Of a stretch of 64,000 bases of DNA, positions 9,070-48,356 are shown piece by piece (the stretch's first letter is position 1; every line of letters starts with the position of its first letter). The notes beneath the pieces were generated by a model. It did not search any database, was not told the origin of the DNA, and saw nothing but the letters and a program-made list of their open reading frames with translations. Origin of the DNA: a phage; the sequence record PX915678.1; one strand, given 5' to 3'. The translations under genes and the position numbers were made by a program.

Positions 9070-10268
9070 TTTGTAATAATGTCAAACTGTTCTTTAAAGC
9101 AGAAGCTTGAATCTTGATGCTGATACAAAAATTCATAAGCTTTTTCGCGTTCACGGTCATAAAGATTTCGGTCAGATGACAGTTCTTTAATACGCTCAAA
9201 TGTTGATTCCATGTCATTTTCATCAAACCAAACGATACCGCTATCATGAGAAATTAACGGAGTATTATCAACACGGAATTTTAAATTTTCGCCAGTAGAT
9301 TTCCAAAATACTGGAATTGTTCCACACGCACCAAGCTCGAGATGAGTATATTCTAAAGAACGTTGTAGATATTTTTTATCCAACTTACTCAACTGATAAC
9401 CAAATCCGGATTTACTCATACGTTCAAGCATTTCGCTATTTACATAACGGTCAAGAATTTGCGTTGGCAAATTAGGAGCAATTTTAATTTGGTCTACTTG
9501 ATGAAGACGATAATACTCGTATGGAATTCCTTTTTCTTTAATAGGAATGAACGCTGGAGAACGTTCCAGACCTTCCATAATAGTACTTAATCCAGCAGGT
9601 TTAAGATGTTTTTCGTGAAAATCAAACATCTGATAAAAACCTTTCCATGTAGTCGTACGACCGATCCAACGGTTGACATTCATATTAATTTCAGAAACAT
9701 CTTTCCAGTAGGTTGATCGAACCTTCGCAATATCCATAGGAGGCTGAAAGTTGTATACAGTCGGTGCTTCTTCAATATCATCAAACAGAGAAACTGTTTC
9801 TGGATACCATTCTTTCATCAGAACTTTATTAAAATCACCATTATCAGAATGACTAAAAATAACATCAGCTCGGCGAACAGTTTCTTCTAATCCCAAATTT
9901 CGACGCAAAGAAAGAGAAGAATGGTCATGTTGATAAACTACAACACGAACCGAAGGTTTAATGTTATCAATAATTTTTTTATAGTTATTAATAGTGTCTT
10001 CTTCGACTGAAGTAGCAGGAACTGAATTGATAATTAGAATATCACAATCATTTACCAGCTTAAGTGTTTTATCGTATTCTTTTGCCAATAAAACCGGAAT
10101 TGAAAATGATTTATAATCATGCGCGCAATTACGGGTAAATGATTTATCTTTAGCATAAACCAAAGTTACTTCATGACCATTTTTAATAAACCAATCACGT
10201 TGCTCAAGAGAAAATTTAGTTACGCCACAACCTTCAAGACCTCGAGCCATAAAAATGCATACTTTCAT
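9066..10268 (-). CDS. a-gt: DNA alpha-glucosyltransferase
   Basis: 400-aa ORF MKVCIFMARGLEGCGVTKFSLEQRDWFIKNGHEVTLVYAKDKSF..., recognised as T4 alpha-gt. Confidence 0.9.
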   Translation of the reverse strand: MKVCIFMARGLEGCGVTKFSLEQRDWFIKNGHEVTLVYAKDKSFTRNCAHDYKSFSIPVLLAKEYDKTLKLVNDCDILIINSVPATSVEEDTINNYKKIIDNIKPSVRVVVYQHDHSSLSLRRNLGLEETVRRADVIFSHSDNGDFNKVLMKEWYPETVSLFDDIEEAPTVYNFQPPMDIAKVRSTYWKDVSEINMNVNRWIGRTTTWKGFYQMFDFHEKHLKPAGLSTIMEGLERSPAFIPIKEKGIPYEYYRLHQVDQIKIAPNLPTQILDRYVNSEMLERMSKSGFGYQLSKLDKKYLQRSLEYTHLELGACGTIPVFWKSTGENLKFRVDNTPLISHDSGIVWFDENDMESTFERIKELSSDRNLYDREREKAYEFLYQHQDSSFCFKEQFDIITK

Positions 10269-10289
10269 TTAATATCCTCATTGTTTTGG

Positions 10290-14303: not shown

Positions 14304-14774
14304 TTAATCATGTTTCCACACCCCATCGGTATTTGACCAAAGTCGCTGATTATCTGATCCTCGCCACAGCTTTTTAGTCGGAAGATTTTTCTCATACTTC
14401 CCATCAATAATAACATCAACATATTTAAGCATTTCTAGTTGTTTAATATCTTCAAATTTATATCCTGTCCACAACCAAATGCTTTTATTTGGATAAAGAT
14501 TTTTTACTGTTTGAACAATGCAATGAACAACATCTCGGTTATCAGGATAGAGAGGGTCTCCTCCAGTTATAGTTAATCCTTCTATATAATCATTATTCAA
14601 ACATTCAATTAATTGTTCCAGCGTTTCACCAGTGAATGGAACACCGTTTCTAGCATTCCATGTTGATTTATTATAACATCCTTCGCATTTATGCAAACAA
14701 CCTGTAACGAAAAGAACGACCCTGCATCCAGGGCCATTCACAAAATCACAGGGATAAAATCTATCATAATTCAT
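14304..14774 (-). CDS. nrdG: anaerobic ribonucleotide reductase activase NrdG
   Basis: 156-aa ORF with radical-SAM Cys cluster CLHKCEGC; directly downstream of nrdD. Confidence 0.88.
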   Translation of the reverse strand: MNYDRFYPCDFVNGPGCRVVLFVTGCLHKCEGCYNKSTWNARNGVPFTGETLEQLIECLNNDYIEGLTITGGDPLYPDNRDVVHCIVQTVKNLYPNKSIWLWTGYKFEDIKQLEMLKYVDVIIDGKYEKNLPTKKLWRGSDNQRLWSNTDGVWKHD

Positions 14775-16588
14775 TGGTGTTTAACCCTATGCATGATTTC
14801 TTTATTTTTGCCGAGATTAAATCCGCGTTCATTCGGATTTCCCAAATAACCACAAGTTCTTCTTATTGTGTTCATCTTTTTAGGATCAGTTTCTCCACAA
14901 ATAGAACAAACAAACCCGTTTTCAGTAGGAGTCATTTCATGGGTACTTCCACACGTAAAACATTTATCTACTGGCATGTTAACACCAAAATAATCTAAAT
15001 GTTGTGCAGCATAATCCCATACAGCCTCAAGACCTTTTAGGTTATTTTTCATATCAGGAAGTTCAACATAAGAAATGTGACCACCTGTCGCAATGAAATG
15101 ATATGGAGCTTCGCGAGAAATCTTTTCAAACGGAGTAATATTTTCTTCTACTGAAACATGGAAACTATTAGTGTACCAGCCTTTATCAGTAACATCTTTT
15201 ACACTTCCATATTTTTCAGTATCAAGTTTACAGAAGCGATAACAAAGGTTTTCAGCAGGAGTAGAATACAAGCTAAAAGCAAAACCGGTTCTTTCAGTCC
15301 ACTGCTTAAGACGAGCATTCATTTTAGTTAAAATTTCCTGTCCAATATCACGACCGACAAGAATATTCAATTCGTGAATACCAATGTATCCTAGGGACAC
15401 TGAACTTCTACCGTTTTTAAATAACTCAATTATGTCGTCATCAGGTTTAAGACGAACCCCGAATGCACCTTCTTGGTAAAGAATAGGAGCAACAGTCGCT
15501 TTAACTCCTTTTAAGGAACTAATTCTACACATTAAAGCTTCAAAACATAAATCCATTCGCTCATTGAACAATTCGGCAAATTTCTGTTCATTGAATTGTG
15601 TTCCAATATAAGAATCTAACGCAATACGAGGAAGATTCAGTGTTACAACACCAAGATTATTACGTCCATCAAGAATTTCATTACCAGTCGAATCTTTCCA
15701 TACGCTTAAGAAACTACGGCAACCCATTGGAGAAACAGGAATAGATGAACCAGTGATAGCTTTATTGTTCTTAGCTGAAATAATATCAGGATACATTCTT
15801 TTGCTTGCACACTCTAGAGCAAGCTGCTTAATATCATAGTTCGGATCATCTTTATAAAGATTAACACCTTCTTCAACGAACATAACAAGCTTAGGGAAAA
15901 TAGGAGTTATCCCATCGCGACCAAGACCTTTAATACGATTTTTCAGAATTGCTTTCTGAATCATTCGTTCAGTCCAGTCAGTTCCCGTACCAAATGTAAT
16001 TGTTACAAAAGGCGTTTGTCCGTTTGAACTAAAAAGAGTATTTAGTTCATATTCATAAGCTTGGAATGCATCGTATACGTCTTTTTCTGTTTTAGATTGG
16101 GCATAATTCAACGCATCAGCGATTTGCCATTTTTCTGCATCCTCAATATGTTTTGCATAGGTGCGTTTAACATAAGGAGAAAGTACTTTATCTACATTCG
16201 CAAAAGTCGTTCCGCCATATTGATGGGAAGCAACCTGTGCAGTAATTTGTGCCATAATTGCAGTAGCAACGCCGATTGATTTAGGAGTTTCAATCTGTGC
16301 ATTGCCGAGCTTAAATCCGTTTTCAAGCATTCCTTTTAAATCTACTAAACAACAATTAGTAAATGGAAGAGCAGGGGAATAATCAATATCGTGGAAATGG
16401 ATAATTCCGCTTTCATGCGCTTTCATAATAAAAGACGGGACCATATTTTTGGCAATGTGTTTAGACACAATACCAGCCATAAGGTCCCGTTGAGTTGGAA
16501 AAACACGAGAATCTTTATTAGCATTCTCGTTTAAAAGGTCTTTATTAGTTTTATGAATCAATCCTTCAATTTCTTTTTCAATTGTCAT
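14771..16588 (-). CDS. nrdD: anaerobic ribonucleotide reductase NrdD (uninterrupted)
   Basis: 605-aa continuous ORF; C-terminal Zn-ribbon CFTCGS...CSICG and glycyl-radical motif RTCGYLG. Confidence 0.92.
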   Translation of the reverse strand: MTIEKEIEGLIHKTNKDLLNENANKDSRVFPTQRDLMAGIVSKHIAKNMVPSFIMKAHESGIIHFHDIDYSPALPFTNCCLVDLKGMLENGFKLGNAQIETPKSIGVATAIMAQITAQVASHQYGGTTFANVDKVLSPYVKRTYAKHIEDAEKWQIADALNYAQSKTEKDVYDAFQAYEYELNTLFSSNGQTPFVTITFGTGTDWTERMIQKAILKNRIKGLGRDGITPIFPKLVMFVEEGVNLYKDDPNYDIKQLALECASKRMYPDIISAKNNKAITGSSIPVSPMGCRSFLSVWKDSTGNEILDGRNNLGVVTLNLPRIALDSYIGTQFNEQKFAELFNERMDLCFEALMCRISSLKGVKATVAPILYQEGAFGVRLKPDDDIIELFKNGRSSVSLGYIGIHELNILVGRDIGQEILTKMNARLKQWTERTGFAFSLYSTPAENLCYRFCKLDTEKYGSVKDVTDKGWYTNSFHVSVEENITPFEKISREAPYHFIATGGHISYVELPDMKNNLKGLEAVWDYAAQHLDYFGVNMPVDKCFTCGSTHEMTPTENGFVCSICGETDPKKMNTIRRTCGYLGNPNERGFNLGKNKEIMHRVKHQ

Positions 16589-26977: not shown

Positions 26978-27435
26978 TCAGCCTTATATTCAATAACAGG
27001 ACATACTTTAGCTTTACGCGCTTTTAAAAATTCGACGATAATAGATTTCTTGGGTTGAATAGGAGGTAAACCTTTATACGCCCTATCAATATTTTCTACA
27101 TGTAAAGCATAATCCTTTTTCCATTTATAATCTTTATATTTTTCATGCAGTTGTGCAGGAATAACAAATGAACCAATAATAAGTAAAACAAGCAAAATGG
27201 CAAGTATAAATGCTGATGGAATAAGAGTCCATAAACTACCAAAAATAAGCCATTTCTGCATGATTTCCGCACAGATAATAGTTAGACCTGCGAGTATAGT
27301 ACATCCGAAAAAAGAAACGAAAAATGTAGGGATAACAATAGACCAAAAGTATGCACACAGTGTCTTAGGTCGTTTCCATTCATCATTAAACAGTTTGAAT
27401 AATTTATAGTGCCAAGAGTTTTCATTAATAATCAT
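26974..27435 (-). CDS. membrane protein
   Basis: 153-aa ORF with 2-3 hydrophobic helices. Confidence 0.5.
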   Translation of the reverse strand: MIINENSWHYKLFKLFNDEWKRPKTLCAYFWSIVIPTFFVSFFGCTILAGLTIICAEIMQKWLIFGSLWTLIPSAFILAILLVLLIIGSFVIPAQLHEKYKDYKWKKDYALHVENIDRAYKGLPPIQPKKSIIVEFLKARKAKVCPVIEYKAE

Positions 27436-27437
27436 AA

Positions 27438-27959
27438 TTATCCTTTCATTGAAGGTGTAACAGTTGTTAAATACTTAATCATAGCTTCAGCTTCTGATTT
27501 TGATAATGAAATTTCTCCATTGTTTTGACGAATAGAAATAAAATCCGGATGACGGTCACCACCAGCTTTTAAAATACACATATAAGTATCAGTTTCATCT
27601 TCAATATCTGAAATAATTGAAGCAGTTCCACATGAATGTGGTTTTTGATAAATCAATGCAGCTTTTCTTCCACCGTTTGACTGTTCATAAACTTTTAACA
27701 CATCAAACAAATCGCTTCTTTTATCAATAGCTAAGATGTTGTTTTCATCTTCAATGTTAAATCCTTCGGATACTTCATAAAGTGTCACCCATAAATCACC
27801 TATATCGATAGTAGCATTTCCTTTTCCACGACTTTCAAGAATATGACAAATTTTCTTGATTTCGTCATAACTCATTTTAATAATATCATCTCCTTGAATA
27901 AGGAAGATGTCATTTTTAAATTCAACGCGAATTAAACCACTTCCACTTGAAATAAACAT
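27438..27959 (-). CDS. hypothetical protein, paralog pair member 1
   Basis: 173-aa ORF; C-terminus ISLSKSEAEAMIKYLTTVTPSM resembles neighbour. Confidence 0.5.
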   Translation of the reverse strand: MFISSGSGLIRVEFKNDIFLIQGDDIIKMSYDEIKKICHILESRGKGNATIDIGDLWVTLYEVSEGFNIEDENNILAIDKRSDLFDVLKVYEQSNGGRKAALIYQKPHSCGTASIISDIEDETDTYMCILKAGGDRHPDFISIRQNNGEISLSKSEAEAMIKYLTTVTPSMKG

Positions 27960-30783: not shown

Positions 30784-31365
30784 CTAACCGAGCTTTTTAG
30801 TTAATTCATTCCAGTGTTTTCTACACAAAGAAACATAAATTTCATCACCAATACAGATTTGATTACCTTCTTTAACTGGTGTTCCATCTTCCATTAATCG
30901 AGCTGTCATAATCGCTTTTTTACCACAATGACAAACTGCTTTTAGTTCAATAAGTTTATCTGCAATCGCCAAAAGTTCTTTAGAACCTTCAAATAATTTT
31001 CCAGCGAAATCAGTCCTTAGACCATAAGCCATAACAGGAACATTATATGTATCAACAATTCGGCTTAATTGATGCACCTGTTCAGTTTTTAAAAACTGAG
31101 CTTCATCTACAAATACACAATGAATATCTTTTTGTGCTTCAGCCCATTTATAGAACTCAAAAATATCCATATCATCCGTAATAATATTCGCTTCCTGTTT
31201 AATTCCAATGCGAGAAACGACTTCACAGACAGAATCGCGAGTATCAATAGCAGGCTTAAGAACTAATACACTCATTCCACGTTCTTTATAATTATGCGCA
31301 GCAGTCAAAAGAGAAGCAGATTTTCCAGCATTCATTGCTGCATAAGTAAAAATTAAACTCGCCAT
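30784..31365 (-). CDS. tk: thymidine kinase
   Basis: 193-aa ORF; P-loop YAAMNAGKSASLL, CHCG...C..C Zn motif; position after rI. Confidence 0.88.
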   Translation of the reverse strand: MASLIFTYAAMNAGKSASLLTAAHNYKERGMSVLVLKPAIDTRDSVCEVVSRIGIKQEANIITDDMDIFEFYKWAEAQKDIHCVFVDEAQFLKTEQVHQLSRIVDTYNVPVMAYGLRTDFAGKLFEGSKELLAIADKLIELKAVCHCGKKAIMTARLMEDGTPVKEGNQICIGDEIYVSLCRKHWNELTKKLG

Positions 31366-31374
31366 ATCACCTTC

Positions 31375-31560
31375 TTAAAGCGTATTCACATAAGCTATTA
31401 ATTCATTTTCTTTCTTATCAAACCGATCAGCAAATTCTTCCTGCTGTTCGGGAGATAGCGGGCCGTATTCATCATAAAAGGTGTTTGCTTCTGTATGCTC
31501 ATCTAGAAGTTCATGGATAAGCTCAAACAATTTATCTTTTTGTTCTTTACTCAGACTCAT
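31375..31560 (-). CDS. hypothetical acidic protein
   Basis: 61-aa ORF. Confidence 0.45.
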   Translation of the reverse strand: MSLSKEQKDKLFELIHELLDEHTEANTFYDEYGPLSPEQQEEFADRFDKKENELIAYVNTL

Positions 31561-31726
31561 ATATTAATTTCCAGGAGTTTTAAAATAATTCGCTTTTGCT
31601 TAAATATTTCCACAGTTAAATGATCAGTATCTTTTTGACCGATTCCAATGGCAAAACCTTTATTAACAGCGAGTTCAATTAAATTATCAAGTTCACGTAA
31701 CACTTCATATTGTAGCTCAGAACTAT

Positions 31727-31954
31727 TCATTTCGGTTTACCTTCTTTAACGAAATCAGGATAAGGATAAAATCCTGAATAAAATCCTTCACCTTTGTGAT
31801 TGGTGCATCCTTTATTAGAACAATAGCACCAATAATCGAAATCACAAGTCATTTCATCATTACATAAAGCAAAAACAACTGGCCATTCACACTTTTCGCA
31901 GTGGGCATTTTTAAGAATACTAGTTTGGCTCATAACCATGTAACCTTTAAGCAA
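31727..31954 (-). CDS. hypothetical Cys-rich protein
   Basis: 75-aa ORF with multiple Cys/His. Confidence 0.45.
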   Translation of the reverse strand: MLKGYMVMSQTSILKNAHCEKCEWPVVFALCNDEMTCDFDYWCYCSNKGCTNHKGEGFYSGFYPYPDFVKEGKPK

Positions 31955-32142
31955 TATTCTTCTACGTGCTGTTTACGACCTTTCTTATCAATAAAGGTAT
32001 ATTCAACGAATGTTCCAATATAGTCTTTATCTACATCATGCGGACTATTAATTGGGCATTTAGTACGGCAAATGCGTTCCCATTGACGAATAATTTCCAC
32101 TTTGTTTTTAGGATCAAACGGATGCGGGTAATGTACTTTCAT
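31930..32142 (-). CDS. hypothetical protein
   Basis: 70-aa ORF. Confidence 0.45.
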   Translation of the reverse strand: MKVHYPHPFDPKNKVEIIRQWERICRTKCPINSPHDVDKDYIGTFVEYTFIDKKGRKQHVEEYCLKVTWL

Positions 32143-32593
32143 AATCCACCACTATTAAATCAATATCAAGAGTAAACATGTCGATTAATTTAGAAACCTT
32201 ATCCCAATCACCACCAGCAATACCGCAACCTATGCGTGGAATGTAAATTACTGGTTTAAACAAAAGGGTTTCTGCCTGTAGATTTAATTCTATCATGCAG
32301 TTTACTAAAGCACCATAATCAAGATTAGGACCCGGTTCATATTGCGTATACAGGTTATAGCATATACCAAATCCTGTAGGATTATGTTTAAAAACAATAG
32401 ACATATCGCCTAATTTATCACGAGAACCGTACTCGGTAGTGGTTTTATCTATTTCTAAAATTTTGGGATAGGCTCTTGCTAATTGACCTGCTACGCCAGA
32501 GCCCATTGTGTGGAAGCAATTACACCCGTGCGCAATAATATTACCTTGAAGAAATAGGGCGACAATATCGCCCTTGATATATTTTACAATCAT
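32114..32593 (-). CDS. macro-domain-like protein (predicted ADP-ribose binding/processing)
   Basis: 159-aa ORF with Gly-rich motifs HGCNCFHTMGSGVAGQLA and GCGIAGGDW resembling macro-domain signatures. Confidence 0.45.
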   Translation of the reverse strand: MIVKYIKGDIVALFLQGNIIAHGCNCFHTMGSGVAGQLARAYPKILEIDKTTTEYGSRDKLGDMSIVFKHNPTGFGICYNLYTQYEPGPNLDYGALVNCMIELNLQAETLLFKPVIYIPRIGCGIAGGDWDKVSKLIDMFTLDIDLIVVDYESTLPASV

Positions 32594-32937
32594 CTAGTAC
32601 TCAATCCTCGATTATAAGAATCTACTAAACGGTCAACCATTGAATGACAAGCGGCTTTATCTTTCTCCTCCGCAACTGAACATTCTAAGGTATTCCACTT
32701 TTTAGCATATCGTTTTAACAATGTATCATTTTTGTATCTGCTTGATTTATCTCTTTCTCCGTCTTTATATGCATATATTAATTTCTGCGCAAATTCAGCT
32801 TGGCATGCTTTATTTTTCCCGCAATAATCCGCGGCAGTACGATTTACATACTCTCTAATTTCAGTATATGATGTATCTGCTGATGCAGAAGCAGAAAATG
32901 AAATTAATCCTATACATAAAACCAAAATTTTAGTCAT
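32590..32937 (-). CDS. secreted/periplasmic protein with signal peptide
   Basis: 115-aa ORF; N-terminal MTKILVLCIGLISFSASASA signal; several Cys. Confidence 0.5.
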   Translation of the reverse strand: MTKILVLCIGLISFSASASADTSYTEIREYVNRTAADYCGKNKACQAEFAQKLIYAYKDGERDKSSRYKNDTLLKRYAKKWNTLECSVAEEKDKAACHSMVDRLVDSYNRGLSTR

Positions 32938-36149: not shown

Positions 36150-36623
36150 TTATTTGAATGATTTGACGTACTGAATAGAGCCTTTGCTATTCACGAAAGC
36201 GATTTTACCATTTTTGTTATACATGGTAGCAGTACGCTGATAACCATAAGTTTGTTTACCAGATTGATAACCAACTAATGCGAAATTATCTTCACCCATT
36301 TTATTCTGCTTAGCGCGGATACGTTCATGACCGTGTGCCATAAGAACCTTAGCGTCGCCAGTTGCAATGGATCTACGAGTTTTTTCATCTTCAACTGTAT
36401 TAACAAAATCGTCAAATGAATCAAATTTAGCATGAGATTTATTATACAGTTTTCCATCTACTGCATAATTATATCCCTGTACATCCATCTCAACTTCTGT
36501 ACCATCATCCAATACAGCAGTGATTTTTTGACCTTTTTTAAATTTCAAAAGATCAGTAAAAGATTCAGCGATAATTTGAGAATTAATAGCTGCTTCAGTG
36601 ATAAATTCTTGATATGTTTTCAT
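36150..36623 (-). CDS. internal protein (IP) family member with capsid-targeting N-terminus
   Basis: 157-aa ORF beginning MKTYQEFITEAAINS (CTS-like signature ending in E); late promoter TATAAATA 35 nt upstream. Confidence 0.65.
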   Translation of the reverse strand: MKTYQEFITEAAINSQIIAESFTDLLKFKKGQKITAVLDDGTEVEMDVQGYNYAVDGKLYNKSHAKFDSFDDFVNTVEDEKTRRSIATGDAKVLMAHGHERIRAKQNKMGEDNFALVGYQSGKQTYGYQRTATMYNKNGKIAFVNSKGSIQYVKSFK

Positions 36624-41664: not shown

Positions 41665-42138
41665 TTATTTGATTTGTTTAGCAGACCAAATGCGGTCTTT
41701 AATAATTTTTTGGATGTCTTCAACATACTCAAGAGAGTGAGCATGTGGGTTATCTTTGAAACTATAAGCACGAGCTAGCTTTTGACCTTCGGTTTTGATT
41801 ACTAAAAGCTCTTTAAGGATAGCTTCATATTTAGCGATAATTCCTTTAACGATATTTTTTTCTTGTGCAGCTTTAGGATCTGCTTTAGGAGCAGGTTTAC
41901 CCGAAGCCTTTGCAAAAGCAGCTCCAGTAGCAACTAAACTTTTCCAGGCCATACTAACTGCATTTCCCGTAAATCCTTCTGCTTTCATGTCGCGAGCAAA
42001 TTGGAATCGTGATTCGTCAGAAGCATCTTTATAGGAATATTTACCCGCTGCAATGGCTGCTTTTGCGACAGCTTGAATTTCGGTGCTAGATGCTTCATTT
42101 AACACCGCTTCATTTAAAAATTGAGCATATGATTTCAT
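41665..42138 (-). CDS. internal protein (IP) family member with capsid-targeting N-terminus
   Basis: 157-aa ORF beginning MKSYAQFLNEAVLNE; Ala/Lys-rich; own late promoter and terminator. Confidence 0.6.
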   Translation of the reverse strand: MKSYAQFLNEAVLNEASSTEIQAVAKAAIAAGKYSYKDASDESRFQFARDMKAEGFTGNAVSMAWKSLVATGAAFAKASGKPAPKADPKAAQEKNIVKGIIAKYEAILKELLVIKTEGQKLARAYSFKDNPHAHSLEYVEDIQKIIKDRIWSAKQIK

Positions 42139-42216: not shown

Positions 42217-42523
42217 AAGCCTTGCGGCAACCTTGTCGGGGTTCCACCTGCTAAGGCAAGTGTTTGTACGAAACGCCGGGATTCGAACCCGGTTATTAAG
42301 CAGTTGACGCTACTCAATATTTTTTAAAAGGCCATATCTCGACCATATCCGAACGTTCCGTCAAAAACGCTACTCGGCTTACGGCAAAGATATTTCCTCG
42401 AATCGATAATTCGGTGCGCCGTTTCAGCTGTGATAGTAAAGAACCAGAACACAGTAAAACTGTGGGAGGAACTATACTCCAGGGAGCATCAATCCGACGA
42501 CTTACCGGTAGCGACCCGGTTTC
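42217..42523 (-). ncRNA. candidate stable structured RNA(s), possibly degenerate tRNA-like
   Basis: ~300 nt without ORF, GC-richer than surroundings, bounded by ORF/tRNA array and terminator; tRNA T-arm-like CCGGGTTCGAATCCCGG (42276-42292) plus several hairpins. Confidence 0.3.
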
Positions 42524-42874
42524 TTAATATTCTTTTAAAGCATCAATCTGTTCACGGCGTTTACGCCATAAATCAATTGCTTCATACGCAGATTCAGCAT
42601 TTCGAATTAGTCGGCATTTGTGTAAAGACTTGTGATTTTGATATTGTGTAGATAACGAAATTTTATCTAAAAGGTCTTTACGTTCAAAGTATTCGTAACC
42701 ATCTAAGCCAAATGAACGATTTTTGAGAAATTGCCAATGACCATATTCGTTTTCGACATAAACATAATCCGCGTGTTGATAAAGCAAATTAATTACACGT
42801 TCAGAAATAACAGTGTCATTGTGATTAAAATAGAATGTTAAATCATGAACTACTAAATAAACATTACCTTTCAT
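42524..42874 (-). CDS. hypothetical protein
   Basis: 116-aa ORF immediately 3' of tRNA-Arg. Confidence 0.5.
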   Translation of the reverse strand: MKGNVYLVVHDLTFYFNHNDTVISERVINLLYQHADYVYVENEYGHWQFLKNRSFGLDGYEYFERKDLLDKISLSTQYQNHKSLHKCRLIRNAESAYEAIDLWRKRREQIDALKEY

Positions 42875-42890
42875 ATTTTCCTCACTTAAT

Positions 42891-42966
42891 TGGTCGAGGC
42901 AGTAGGGATCGAACCTACGACCTAGGACTTAGAAGGTCCTTGCTCTTCCTTCTGAGCTATGCCTCG
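42891..42966 (-). tRNA. tRNA-Arg (anticodon UCU)
   Basis: Cloverleaf CGAGGCA/TGCCTCG acceptor, anticodon arm AGGAC-CTTCTAA-GTCCT, T-arm GTAGG-TTCGATC-CCTAC, encoded CCA. Confidence 0.85.
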
Positions 42967-42970
42967 TATT

Positions 42971-43045
42971 TGGCGGACGTGATAGGATTCGAACCTATAA
43001 CCAATCGCTTAACAGGCGATCGCTCTGCCATTGAGCTACACATCC
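42971..43045 (-). tRNA. tRNA-Asn (anticodon GUU)
   Basis: GGATGTG acceptor, anticodon arm ATCGC-CTGTTAA-GCGAT, T-arm ATAGG-TTCGAAT-CCTAT, CCA encoded. Confidence 0.75.
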
Positions 43046-43049
43046 AAAT

Positions 43050-43136
43050 TGGTGGGGAGTGATGGAGTCGAACCACCCGAGTCGCAATGACAATGAATTT
43101 ACAGTCCACACCGCTACCTCTACGGGATAACTCCCC
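43050..43136 (-). tRNA. tRNA-Tyr (anticodon GUA), long variable arm
   Basis: GGGGAGT/ACTCCCC acceptor, anticodon loop CTGTAAA, variable arm TGTCATTGCGACTCG, T-loop TTCGACT, CCA encoded; 87 nt. Confidence 0.7.
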
Positions 43137-43149
43137 TTAATTCTTAATT

Positions 43150-43224
43150 TGGTGGCCCTGGGTGGAATTGAACCACCATCTGGCGATTATGAGTCGCTTG
43201 CTTGAACCTTCCAGCTACAGGGCC
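43150..43224 (-). tRNA. tRNA with CAU anticodon (Ile2-like; Met not excluded)
   Basis: GGCCCTG/CAGGGCC acceptor, anticodon loop CTCATAA, T-arm GGTGG-TTCAATT-CCACC. Confidence 0.75.
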
Positions 43225-43225
43225 T

Positions 43226-43301
43226 TGGTGCTGATTGACGGAATCGAACCGCCGACCTTCTCATTACAAGTGAGTTGCTCTACCTACTGAGCTAAATCAG
43301 C
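43226..43301 (-). tRNA. tRNA-Thr (anticodon UGU)
   Basis: GCTGATT acceptor, D-arm GCTC-AGTAGGTA-GAGC, anticodon loop CTTGTAA, T-loop TTCGATT. Confidence 0.8.
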
Positions 43302-43306
43302 AAAAC

Positions 43307-43396
43307 TGGCGGAGGCGATAGGATTTGAACCTATGAGTCGCCGGAGCGACTGCCGGTTTTCAAGACCGGTGCATTAAACCACTCTGCCACGCCTCC
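43307..43396 (-). tRNA. tRNA-Ser (anticodon UGA), long variable arm
   Basis: GGAGGCG acceptor, anticodon arm CCGGT-CTTGAAA-ACCGG, long variable arm, T-loop TTCAAAT. Confidence 0.85.
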
Positions 43397-43398
43397 AG

Positions 43399-43472
43399 TC
43401 TCCATACAAGGATTTGAACCTTGGACCTCCTGATCCCAAATCAGGCGCTCTACCAAACTGAGCTACACGGAG
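43399..43472 (-). tRNA. tRNA-Pro (anticodon UGG); CCA not encoded
   Basis: CTCCGTG acceptor, anticodon arm CCTGA-TTTGGGA-TCAGG, T-loop TTCAAAT; abuts tRNA-Ser 5' end (dimeric precursor). Confidence 0.8.
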
Positions 43473-43482
43473 TAAATTAAAT

Positions 43483-43556
<74 letters not shown>

Positions 43557-43561
43557 AAATT

Positions 43562-43649
43562 TGGTGCGAGAAGTGGGACTCGAACCCACAAGGAAATCAT
43601 TCCGCAGCATTTTAAGTGCTGTGCCTTTACCAATTTGACCATTCTCGCG
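43562..43649 (-). tRNA. tRNA-Leu (anticodon UAA), long variable arm
   Basis: GCGAGAA/TTCTCGC acceptor, anticodon arm CAGCA-CTTAAAA-TGCTG, T-loop TTCGAGT. Confidence 0.85.
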
Positions 43650-43723
43650 CTGGGAATAAAGGACTCGAACCTTTGCATCTAGCAGTCAAAGTGCTATGCC
43701 TTACCAACTTGGCTAATTCCCAA
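43650..43723 (-). tRNA. tRNA-Gln (anticodon UUG); CCA not encoded
   Basis: TGGGAAT/ATTCCCA acceptor, anticodon arm TAGCA-CTTTGAC-TGCTA; 3' end directly abuts tRNA-Leu 5' end. Confidence 0.85.
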
Positions 43724-45209: not shown

Positions 45210-45260
45210 GTAATAGTATCACAACTAAAACCCTATGTAAACAACTTTGTGAAATTATTT
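45210..45260 (-). promoter_or_regulatory. T4 early-type promoter
   Basis: mRNA-sense AAATAATTTCACAAAGTTGTTTACATAGGGTTTTAGTTGTGATACTATTACC. Confidence 0.6.
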
Positions 45261-45512
45261 TAAATCTTCTAATCGTTTCTTCATCTTAGAACCGTTCTTA
45301 GCGATTTCGCCTGCATCTGAGCATAATGCTAAAAGTGCTTTAACTTTAGTTTGGTCTCCTTTAAAAGATGAAGGATCGACTGCAGCAGCAAGTTCTTTAA
45401 TACGAGAGAAAAGACGCTCAGCTTCAGCTAAAGCCATTCCAAGCTTTACTTCCATACCGTGGGAAGATTCAGTGATAGTAGTTTTTGTAGCAAACTCTTT
45501 GAAAGTTTTCAT
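45255..45512 (-). CDS. internal protein, ipI-locus (capsid-targeting N-terminus)
   Basis: 85-aa ORF MKTFKEFATKTTITESSHG...; location adjacent to 57B as for T4 ipI. Confidence 0.6.
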   Translation of the reverse strand: MKTFKEFATKTTITESSHGMEVKLGMALAEAERLFSRIKELAAAVDPSSFKGDQTKVKALLALCSDAGEIAKNGSKMKKRLEDLK

Positions 45513-47681: not shown

Positions 47682-48356
47682 TTAATTTATTAGACTTCTT
47701 AAACGAGCAGAAGTCATAAATGGAAATTTTTCTAAAGTTGGCTTTCGCCAATATCTTGGATGACAAGTTGATTTAAAATCAAGAACAATTTTCTTTGCTT
47801 CATCAATAGTGTTAACTCCAAAGTTATCTAACATTATTTTCTTTTCTTTTTCCCACCGTTTATTAGCTAAAGCAGATTGAAGCTTTTTGTTTTTAAATGT
47901 GTCATTTTTTCTAGAATGAGTTGTGCCTTGTGTCGGACTCCATCCTCTTCCTAAAATAAATCCCTCAGGAATTATATCTCCATCATGTAATTTTATACAT
48001 CTTTTACCATTATTATAATATTTTCGTCCAGTTTGTGTATTTGAAATATTATTTGCATGTTTTCTTTTTAACCAACCATAAACTTTATTATTTCTCCTAA
48101 CATATTTAGTTGAAACCGTCATTTTTATGGCTGCATAAGATAATTTTAAAGAATTTGGGTGTATTTTTACTAATAGCTGATGTGCAACATAATGCTCTTC
48201 TGGAGTTAAATCAACCAAGTTAGAAGCATCATTACTACCGCCTAAACATTTCGGAATAATATGATGTCTTTCTTTATATCCAGTAAGGGCTCTATTGCGA
48301 GCCCTATCAATTAGTGAATTATAAATTTTTTCATAATTCATCGTACATTGCTCCAA
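47682..48356 (-). CDS. free-standing HNH homing-type endonuclease
   Basis: 224-aa ORF; HNH core [32 protein letters not shown]; basic C-terminal region; between genes 2 and 3. Confidence 0.7.

Follow-up and report, generated by a model that had tools for sequence, protein, structure and literature searches.

Bacteria are known to defend themselves against phages by means of DarT toxins, which ADP-ribosylate DNA, and T-even phages combine several counter-measures against these toxins: AdfA, AdfN (a NADAR enzyme) and, as the latest addition, the macrodomain protein Tk.4/AdfM. Phage T4 lacking adfA and adfN was still resistant to DarTG2, from which a further factor was predicted (PMC11825919). 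A preprint of November 2025 (bioRxiv 10.1101/2025.11.20.689424) reports that tk.4 was the sole significant hit of a T4 transposon library on DarTG2-expressing E. coli (M9-glucose, 30 °C), that a clean tk.4 knockout of T4 was DarTG2-sensitive, and that T4 can dispense with the gene on plain E. coli K-12, where it became important only in the presence of DarTG2. There, the gene was renamed adfM (anti-DarT factor Macrodomain), and in the words of the authors it 'seems likely' that ADP-ribose is enzymatically removed from DNA. The name AdfM is also borne by gp104 of the chimallivirus PhiKZ, which was shown biochemically to remove DarT2-made ADP-ribose from DNA (Cell Rep 2026, PMC13309987); the text of that paper makes no mention of phage T4, Tk.4 or T-even phages.

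The bacterial macrodomain protein SCO6735 of Streptomyces coelicolor (PDB 5E3B), which does not have a Lys/Asp dyad, removes ADP-ribose from thymidine in DNA by hydrolysis and serves as a DarT antitoxin without being linked to a DarT gene (PMC9411070). Its Q85A mutant was inactive and its N27S mutant nearly so; Asn27 locks the rotamer of the Gln, and a water molecule positioned by the backbone was proposed as the catalyst (PMC9411070). A Lys-bearing mobile loop and Lys34 of SCO6735 have been implicated in the positioning of DNA. In addition, SCO6735 and TARG1-like macrodomains hydrolyse U-ADPr on ssRNA (PMC13036486).

The DNA analysed here (hereafter, the window) is a stretch of 64,000 nucleotides from a phage (sequence record PX915678.1). 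The genome is that of a Tequatrovirus: many Tequatrovirus genomes, e.g. that of Shigella phage ESh16, match the region at 98-99% identity, and in the blastn map the window aligns, with indels, to T4 coordinates 28.0-78.0 kb at ~95% identity. The 159-aa ORF that the sequence-only reading had claimed is present on the minus strand with an ATG start (Table 1). The same reading had placed it next to tk; the ORF is in fact separated from nearby tk (30784..31365) by four small ORFs (31375..32142). This ORF is tk.4 (adfM), orthologous to T4 tk.4 by both position and homology. It lies between vs and tk.3 on the same strand, in the position and orientation found in T4, and its product is homologous to T4 Tk.4 over the full length (58% identity over 155 aa, gap-free, E=3e-70). 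Relatives of tk.4 were found by tblastn in 2,769 phage records, and the labels given to the gene in public records vary from 'macro domain protein', 'phosphatase' and 'Poa1p-like family protein' to hypothetical.

Table 1. Positions of tk.4, its motifs and neighbours, and other features in the window.
Feature	Position	Strand	Description
tk.4 / adfM CDS	32114..32593	(-)	159-aa stand-alone macrodomain; ORF list, Pfam, PHROG, T4 homology, AF2, Foldseek
Loop 1 motif HGCNCFHTMGSGVAGQLA	32477..32530	(-)	residues 22-39
Strand-end motif NLYTQ	32342..32356	(-)	residues 80-84
Loop 2 motif PRIGCGIAGGDW	32204..32239	(-)	residues 119-130; predicted second Gly-rich ADP-ribose/diphosphate loop
Divergent allele cassette	32114..32560	(-)	nucleotide identity to T4 37-83% (sliding comparison)
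vs (valyl-tRNA synthetase modifier)	32590..32937	(-)	upstream neighbour; 100% aa identity to T4
ATGA overlap, vs stop TGA / tk.4 start ATG	32590..32593	(-)	GAGGA 12 nt upstream
tk.3	31930..32142	(-)	downstream neighbour; 93% aa identity to T4; start overlaps tk.4 3' end by 29 nt
Junctions of missing mobB/mobC/mobD/segB/nrdD intron	10259..10284, 14754..14774, 16050..16053, 26978..27941, 42524..43205		versus T4; blastn map
219-aa ORF with HNH-like motif (...EEHYVAH)	47682..48341	(-)	between genes 3 and 2; no T4 gene there
ORFs starting MKTYQEF / MKSYAQF / MKTFKEF	36150..36623, 41665..42138, 45255..45512	all (-)	non-T4 segments
tRNA cluster, 10 tRNAs	42266..43722	(-)	Arg, Asn, Tyr, Met-CAT, Thr, Ser, Pro, Gly, Leu, Gln; T4 has 8

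We read vs-tk.4-tk.3 as one gene string that includes tk.4. Between 30.5 and 36.5 kb, promoter-like sites were not in excess (21, as compared to 23.0±4.6 in shuffled sequence) and terminator-like sites were not enriched (6, as compared to 4.2±2.2). One terminator-like call on both strands corresponds to a perfect GC-rich hairpin of 7-8 bp (AGGGCGA...TCGCCCT, 32556..32574) in the 5' end of tk.4. According to the T4 preprint, no T4 gene was depleted more strongly than vs in minimal glucose medium (bioRxiv 10.1101/2025.11.20.689424); vs and tk.4 are translationally overlapping neighbours, each of which is conditionally important, under different conditions.

Profile searches and structure prediction both indicate that Tk.4 is a genuine macro domain of the TARG1/ALC1-like class and a predicted enzyme. 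The Pfam Macro profile (PF01661) matched over profile positions 2-117 of 118, scoring 33.1 bits where the gathering cut-off is 22 (E=5.8e-8), and PHROG 335 matched with E=5.9e-70. When the single sequence was compared with the PDB, matches were obtained to BT1257 of Bacteroides (1.6e-10), yeast Poa1p (2.8e-9), SCO6735 (8.5e-8), Mycobacterium tuberculosis DarG (3.7e-4) and human TARG1 (0.013). With a profile of 61 homologues, the E values were 1.8e-19 for BT1257, 1.2e-16 for TARG1, 8.9e-16 for SCO6735, 1.1e-14 for Poa1p and 2.2e-11 for DarG, so that BT1257, TARG1 and SCO6735 ranked ahead of DarG. DarG was the sole match in the defence library (PADLOC), and none of the NCBIfam families reached its own cut-off for Tk.4, the DarG family NF048014, which was the sole match there too, scoring 27.6 bits against 250. 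An AlphaFold2 (AF2) model built on the 61-homologue alignment (mean pLDDT 95.1, pTM 0.89) has the three-layer alpha/beta/alpha macro fold. In a Foldseek search, this model matched TARG1 (1.5e-9), BT1257 (9.6e-9), Poa1p (1.4e-8) and DarG (5.6e-8), as well as SCO6735 and SARS-CoV-2 Mac1, all with probability 1.0 and with TM scores of 0.7-0.8 across these matches; many phage macrodomains were also matched in BFVD.

Fourteen residues were invariant in the 61 homologues (down to 38% identity): H22, G23, N25, C26, G33, A35, D49, N80, Y82, Q84, P119, G122, G124 and W130. Asn25 aligns with Asn27 of SCO6735 and the conserved Asn of DarG, and G31-S-G33 is the predicted phosphate-binding Gly-rich loop. 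Both this loop and G122-C-G124-I-A-G-G align with the matching loops of all six reference macrodomains, and loop 2, PRIGCGIAGGDW, matches the PRIGCGLAGGxW of BT1257 and SCO6735. Gln84 aligns with the catalytic lysines of TARG1 (Lys84) and DarG (Lys80) and with Gln85, which SCO6735 requires; the Gln of BT1257 aligns here as well. Similarly, the P/I-T-K of DarG, TARG1 and PhiKZ gp104 falls on the Y-T-Q of both the window protein and T4 Tk.4. The equivalence of Gln84 was established by alignment of the family profile to PDB sequences and by hmmalign, which agree with the structure-based alignment of PMC9411070. Two other alignments were set aside: a MAFFT alignment with SCO6735 and BT1257, in which the Gln-bearing strand was ~5 residues out of register, and a phmmer single-sequence alignment to BT1257, which was ambiguous at that strand.

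Since Gln84 takes the place of the catalytic Lys, Tk.4 is not of the DarG type; as judged from these alignments, its active site is of the Gln type of SCO6735 and BT1257 rather than the Lys type of DarG and TARG1. The sequence-only reading had been right in proposing a macro-domain enzyme but had missed this Gln. The macro-domain resemblance that it had noticed is well beyond chance in view of the Pfam and PHROG scores; its two quoted Gly-rich motifs, HGCNCFHTMGSGVAGQLA and GCGIAGGDW (within PRIGCGIAGGDW), are present exactly, the search against the Macro profile that it had suggested gave a match above the threshold, and the ligand-loop residues are retained in the alignments. The identity of the active-site Gln and the divergence of the allele (see below) are two details that go beyond the existing annotation.

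The likeness to SCO6735 and BT1257 (PDB 2FG1/2AFC) includes, besides the Gln at the catalytic-Lys position, the Asn (N25 = N27), His22 and the loop 2 pattern PRIGCGxAGGxW. Both are stand-alone proteins with no linked DarT gene, as is the phage protein, and both are among its best PDB matches by sequence and by profile. The identity of Tk.4 to these proteins is ~25%. Tk.4 differs from SCO6735 in that Lys34 of SCO6735 is replaced by Ser32, and in that its mobile loop, which follows the Gln, is shorter by 6 residues and Lys-free. The pI is 9.7 for SCO6735 as compared to 5.0 for the phage-encoded Tk.4, although PhiKZ AdfM, which is active on DNA, is also acidic (pI 5.05). None of the bacterial homologues whose gene context was examined had an ADP-ribosyltransferase gene beside it; the Pelagimonas homologue lies among unrelated housekeeping genes, and another homologue sits on a T4-like phage contig, so that gene context offered no hint of the substrate.

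DarG, the antitoxin of DarTG2 (PDB 5M31, 5M3E and 5M3I), shares with Tk.4 the fold, the Asn of loop 1 and the presumed substrate, thymidine-linked ADP-ribose on ssDNA. However, the catalytic Lys of DarG (P-T-K) corresponds to Gln (Y-T-Q) in Tk.4, and the two are only ~20% identical. Tk.4 does not have the C-terminal DarT-binding domain (159 aa as compared to ~330 aa, with a match to positions 2-138 of 338 of NF048014 only), and no darT is found beside tk.4, its neighbours being vs and tk.3. Human TARG1 (C6orf130, PDB 4J5R) was the top structural match of Tk.4 (TM 0.73-0.82) and has in common with it the YxKGD start, the His, PRIGCG and the Trp, whereas the dyad Lys84/Asp125 of TARG1 is replaced by Gln84/Ala126 and the identity is ~20%. 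With yeast Poa1p, an ADP-ribose-1''-phosphate phosphatase (PDB 6LFQ-6LFU), Tk.4 shares an N-terminal similarity and the motif H-x-C-N-C-x(4)-G-x-G-(I/V)-A, but with the single sequence, confident alignment is mostly confined to residues 3-79, and the insert before loop 2 is longer in Poa1p. The His22 of the Poa1p-like H-x-C-N-C is also present in TARG1, SCO6735 and BT1257, and the motif is partly present in TARG1 and SCO6735.

Like Tk.4, PhiKZ gp104 is a stand-alone phage macrodomain that counters DarTG2. In contrast to Tk.4, it is of the DarG type, keeping the Lys of PTK and having M. tuberculosis DarG as its best PDB match (9.4e-25); it is 21-24% identical to the window protein and is imported into the phage nucleus. 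Because of this Lys and the low identity to Tk.4, the name AdfM appears, from sequence comparison, to cover two separate macrodomain lineages.

The anti-DarTG2 role of this gene is already known, having been reported for T4 tk.4, since the phenotype of the T4 knockout has been published and the gene family is publicly annotated. The window protein shares with T4 Tk.4 the locus (vs-tk.4-tk.3), the length class, the fold and residues H22, N25, G31/G33, N80, Y82, Q84, P119, G122, G124 and W130, and all of the family-invariant active-site residues are common to both alleles. Sensitisation to DarTG2 by loss of the gene was shown for the T4 allele only, and in the literature searched we found no experiment on a window-type allele and no enzyme assay on any Tk.4 protein. 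We infer that the window allele, 58% identical to that of T4, has the same anti-DarTG2 role, and that Tk.4 proteins act by hydrolysis of dT-ADP-ribose. During infection, expression of the vs-tk.4-tk.3 gene string would give intracellular Tk.4, which would bind the ADP-ribose that the host toxin DarT2 puts on thymidine in phage ssDNA. It would then cleave the N-glycosidic bond, giving back replicable DNA and releasing free ADP-ribose, with the outcome that the phage would be insensitive to DarTG2 defence. On the model of SCO6735, Gln84, held by Asn25, would position the distal ribose, and a backbone-bound water would do the chemistry. As a whole, this explanation, in which a Gln-type Tk.4 hydrolyses dT-ADP-ribose and so confers insensitivity to DarTG2, is in our judgement likely. 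The sequence-only reading had proposed that the protein removes defensive DarT ADP-ribosylation, and the profile match, the model, the retained loops and the T4 knockout all support it; the knockout infection of DarTG-carrying hosts that it had envisaged as a check has in fact been carried out on the T4 orthologue, deletion of tk.4 sensitising the phage to DarTG2 according to the preprint (10.1101/2025.11.20.689424). As a separate observation, the region of T4 nudE (67035..67490), annotated as encoding a Nudix hydrolase active on ADP-ribose, lies at ~37.6-38.1 kb in the window, ~5 kb from tk.4, in a block of 93% identity, as placed by offset from the T4 position in the blastn map. It is a speculative thought that the nudE product could dispose of the ADP-ribose freed by Tk.4.

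In the window, tk.4 is a discrete swapped cassette. The flanks of the cassette are 95-100% identical to T4 at the nucleotide level in vs upstream and 92-98% in tk.3 downstream. Among the encoded proteins, Vs is 100% identical to its T4 counterpart, Vs.1, RegB and Tk are 99% identical and Tk.3 is 93% identical, as compared to 58% for Tk.4 and 54% for Tk.2; tk.1 of T4 is swapped for other small ORFs. The window protein also has 4 extra C-terminal residues relative to T4 Tk.4. The two allele types are alike (~83%) only over the first ~150 nt. Phages T2, T4 and T6 all carry the T4-type allele of 155 aa, which is 57-58% identical to window Tk.4. The window-type allele was found in about 280 phage records at 90% or higher nucleotide identity and the T4-type allele in ~225, and a third allele class, with ~81% nucleotide identity to T4, was among the matches listed. 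In JS98, a phage of a different genus, the protein is 92.5% identical to window Tk.4. In loop 2, the window sequence IGCGIAGGDW is that of the family consensus, and the T4 sequence IGAGIGKGNW fits the consensus less well.

Two further observations concern the allele of T6 and the neighbouring DNA. In T6 Tk.4 (AP018814, 9132..9599), MKAG stands in place of the MGSG of T2, T4 and the window protein, so that Lys replaces Gly31 in the first Gly-rich loop. At least 90% of the family conserve this position, and the Lys may weaken or alter the T6 enzyme. Beside tk.4, a second mosaic patch replaces the tk.1-tk.2 segment of T4 (window 31365..31929). Its ORFs encode 61 aa (54% to Tk.2), 57 aa and a Cys-rich product of 70-75 aa (CEKCEW...CDFDYWCYCSNKGCTNH), the last of which has no T4 counterpart in the compared stretch.

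Some evidence points away from dT-ADP-ribose as the main substrate. The absence of Lys34 and of the Lys-bearing loop, two features of SCO6735 linked to DNA handling, and the acidic pI of Tk.4 speak against the proposed action on DNA. PHROG 335 is named 'phosphatase', the RefSeq entry of T4 reads 'phosphatase; contains A1pp phosphatase motif', and Poa1p, with which the HxCNC is shared, is a significant PDB match (E=2.8e-9). Tk.4 might therefore act mainly on a small ADP-ribose derivative, as an ADP-ribose-1''-phosphate phosphatase or O-acetyl-ADP-ribose deacetylase, destroying soluble ADPr-based defence toxins or signals. This is rather improbable in our estimation, considering that no genetic phenotype of the orthologue has been reported other than sensitivity to DarTG2, which modifies DNA, that the 'phosphatase' label originates in domain-level homology (the Poa1p similarity) rather than in an assay, that SCO6735, the closest characterised Gln-type relative, acts on dT-ADPr DNA and U-ADPr RNA, and that no KptA/Tpt1-type enzyme is found beside tk.4. 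A small-molecule activity could nevertheless coexist with the de-modification of DNA. The hydrolysis of U-ADPr on ssRNA by TARG1-like macrodomains, including the Gln-type SCO6735 (PMC13036486), and the occurrence of at least two deeply divergent alleles at one locus in otherwise near-identical genomes would fit a principal role in reversing ADP-ribosylation of RNA (uracil- or phosphate-linked) or by other systems, with the DarTG2 phenotype as a side activity and with alleles that differ in substrate range. Nevertheless, a bacterial defence based on U-ADPr RNA was not found in the literature searched, both alleles have all the family-invariant active-site residues, and allele swaps are common in this region without an implied change of function, tk.1/tk.2 being swapped too; we therefore give this role a small probability.

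The replacement of both the catalytic Lys and Asp of TARG1, by Gln84 and Ala126, raises the question of whether Tk.4 merely binds ADP-ribose, shielding or sequestering modified DNA or the toxin. The same Gln is, however, catalytically essential in the active SCO6735 (PMC9411070), and a purely non-catalytic binder is unlikely because all members of the family share Gln84, Asn25 and His22, which fits catalysis. Tk.4 also has no DarT-binding domain, only the macrodomain part of the DarG model being matched by its 159 aa, and we regard a binding-only role as having a very slim chance of being correct. Alt and Mod modify arginine. In all, T-even phages encode three ADP-ribosyltransferases (cited in PMC8120803). 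A macrodomain eraser encoded in the same genome is a plausible partner of these enzymes, and Tk.4 might erase or tune the phage's own ADP-ribosylation by Alt/ModA/ModB, as the sequence-only reading had offered as a second option, or the RNAylation of host proteins by ModB. This option found no support: no link of tk.4 to alt or mod was found here, the characterised relatives TARG1, SCO6735 and DarG act on acidic residues or on thymine/uracil and not on arginine, and the preprint describes the gene as dispensable on plain E. coli K-12 and as important only with DarTG2. It seems highly improbable to us.

Returning to the hydrolysis of dT-ADP-ribose by a Gln-type Tk.4, the present analysis finds tk.4 present and intact in another Tequatrovirus. 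Since the protein has the SCO6735-type Gln in place of the Lys of DarG and TARG1, SCO6735 rather than DarG should serve as the model for its chemistry, inhibitors and engineering. In nature, at least two very different alleles occur in otherwise near-identical Tequatrovirus backbones, a ready pair for examining anti-defence specificity, and allele specificity bears on the prediction of host range when T4-like phages are used therapeutically against E. coli and Shigella that carry DarTG. A broader proposal would be that the T-even Tk.4 is a Gln-type thymine-ADP-ribose glycohydrolase gained independently of the chimallivirus Lys-type AdfM, and that its allele cassettes (the window, T4 and third ~81% types) are under selection for the range of substrates or toxins (DarT2 variants, RNA U-ADPr) and do not reflect neutral mosaicism; we put this forward tentatively and think it doubtful.

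Several other features distinguish the window from T4. Judged from gaps in the blastn map, four homing-endonuclease genes (mobB, mobC, mobD and segB) are missing from it, as is the I-TevII-bearing nrdD intron, and mobD is replaced by two unrelated ORFs of 153 and 173 aa. The 219-aa ORF with an HNH-like motif is, from its sequence, probably a free-standing homing endonuclease. T4 ipII and ipIII are absent from the window (no match to T4 65.4-66.4 kb). We take the starts of the three ORFs MKTYQEF, MKSYAQF and MKTFKEF to resemble the capsid-targeting N-terminus of T4 internal proteins, and these ORFs may be alternative internal-protein alleles; internal proteins can be anti-restriction factors. 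Nine of the tRNAs in the cluster were confirmed by Rfam, and ARAGORN called an odd 96-nt 'tRNA-???' at 42266..42361, in a stretch that is 89% identical to the T4 rnaC/rnaD region.
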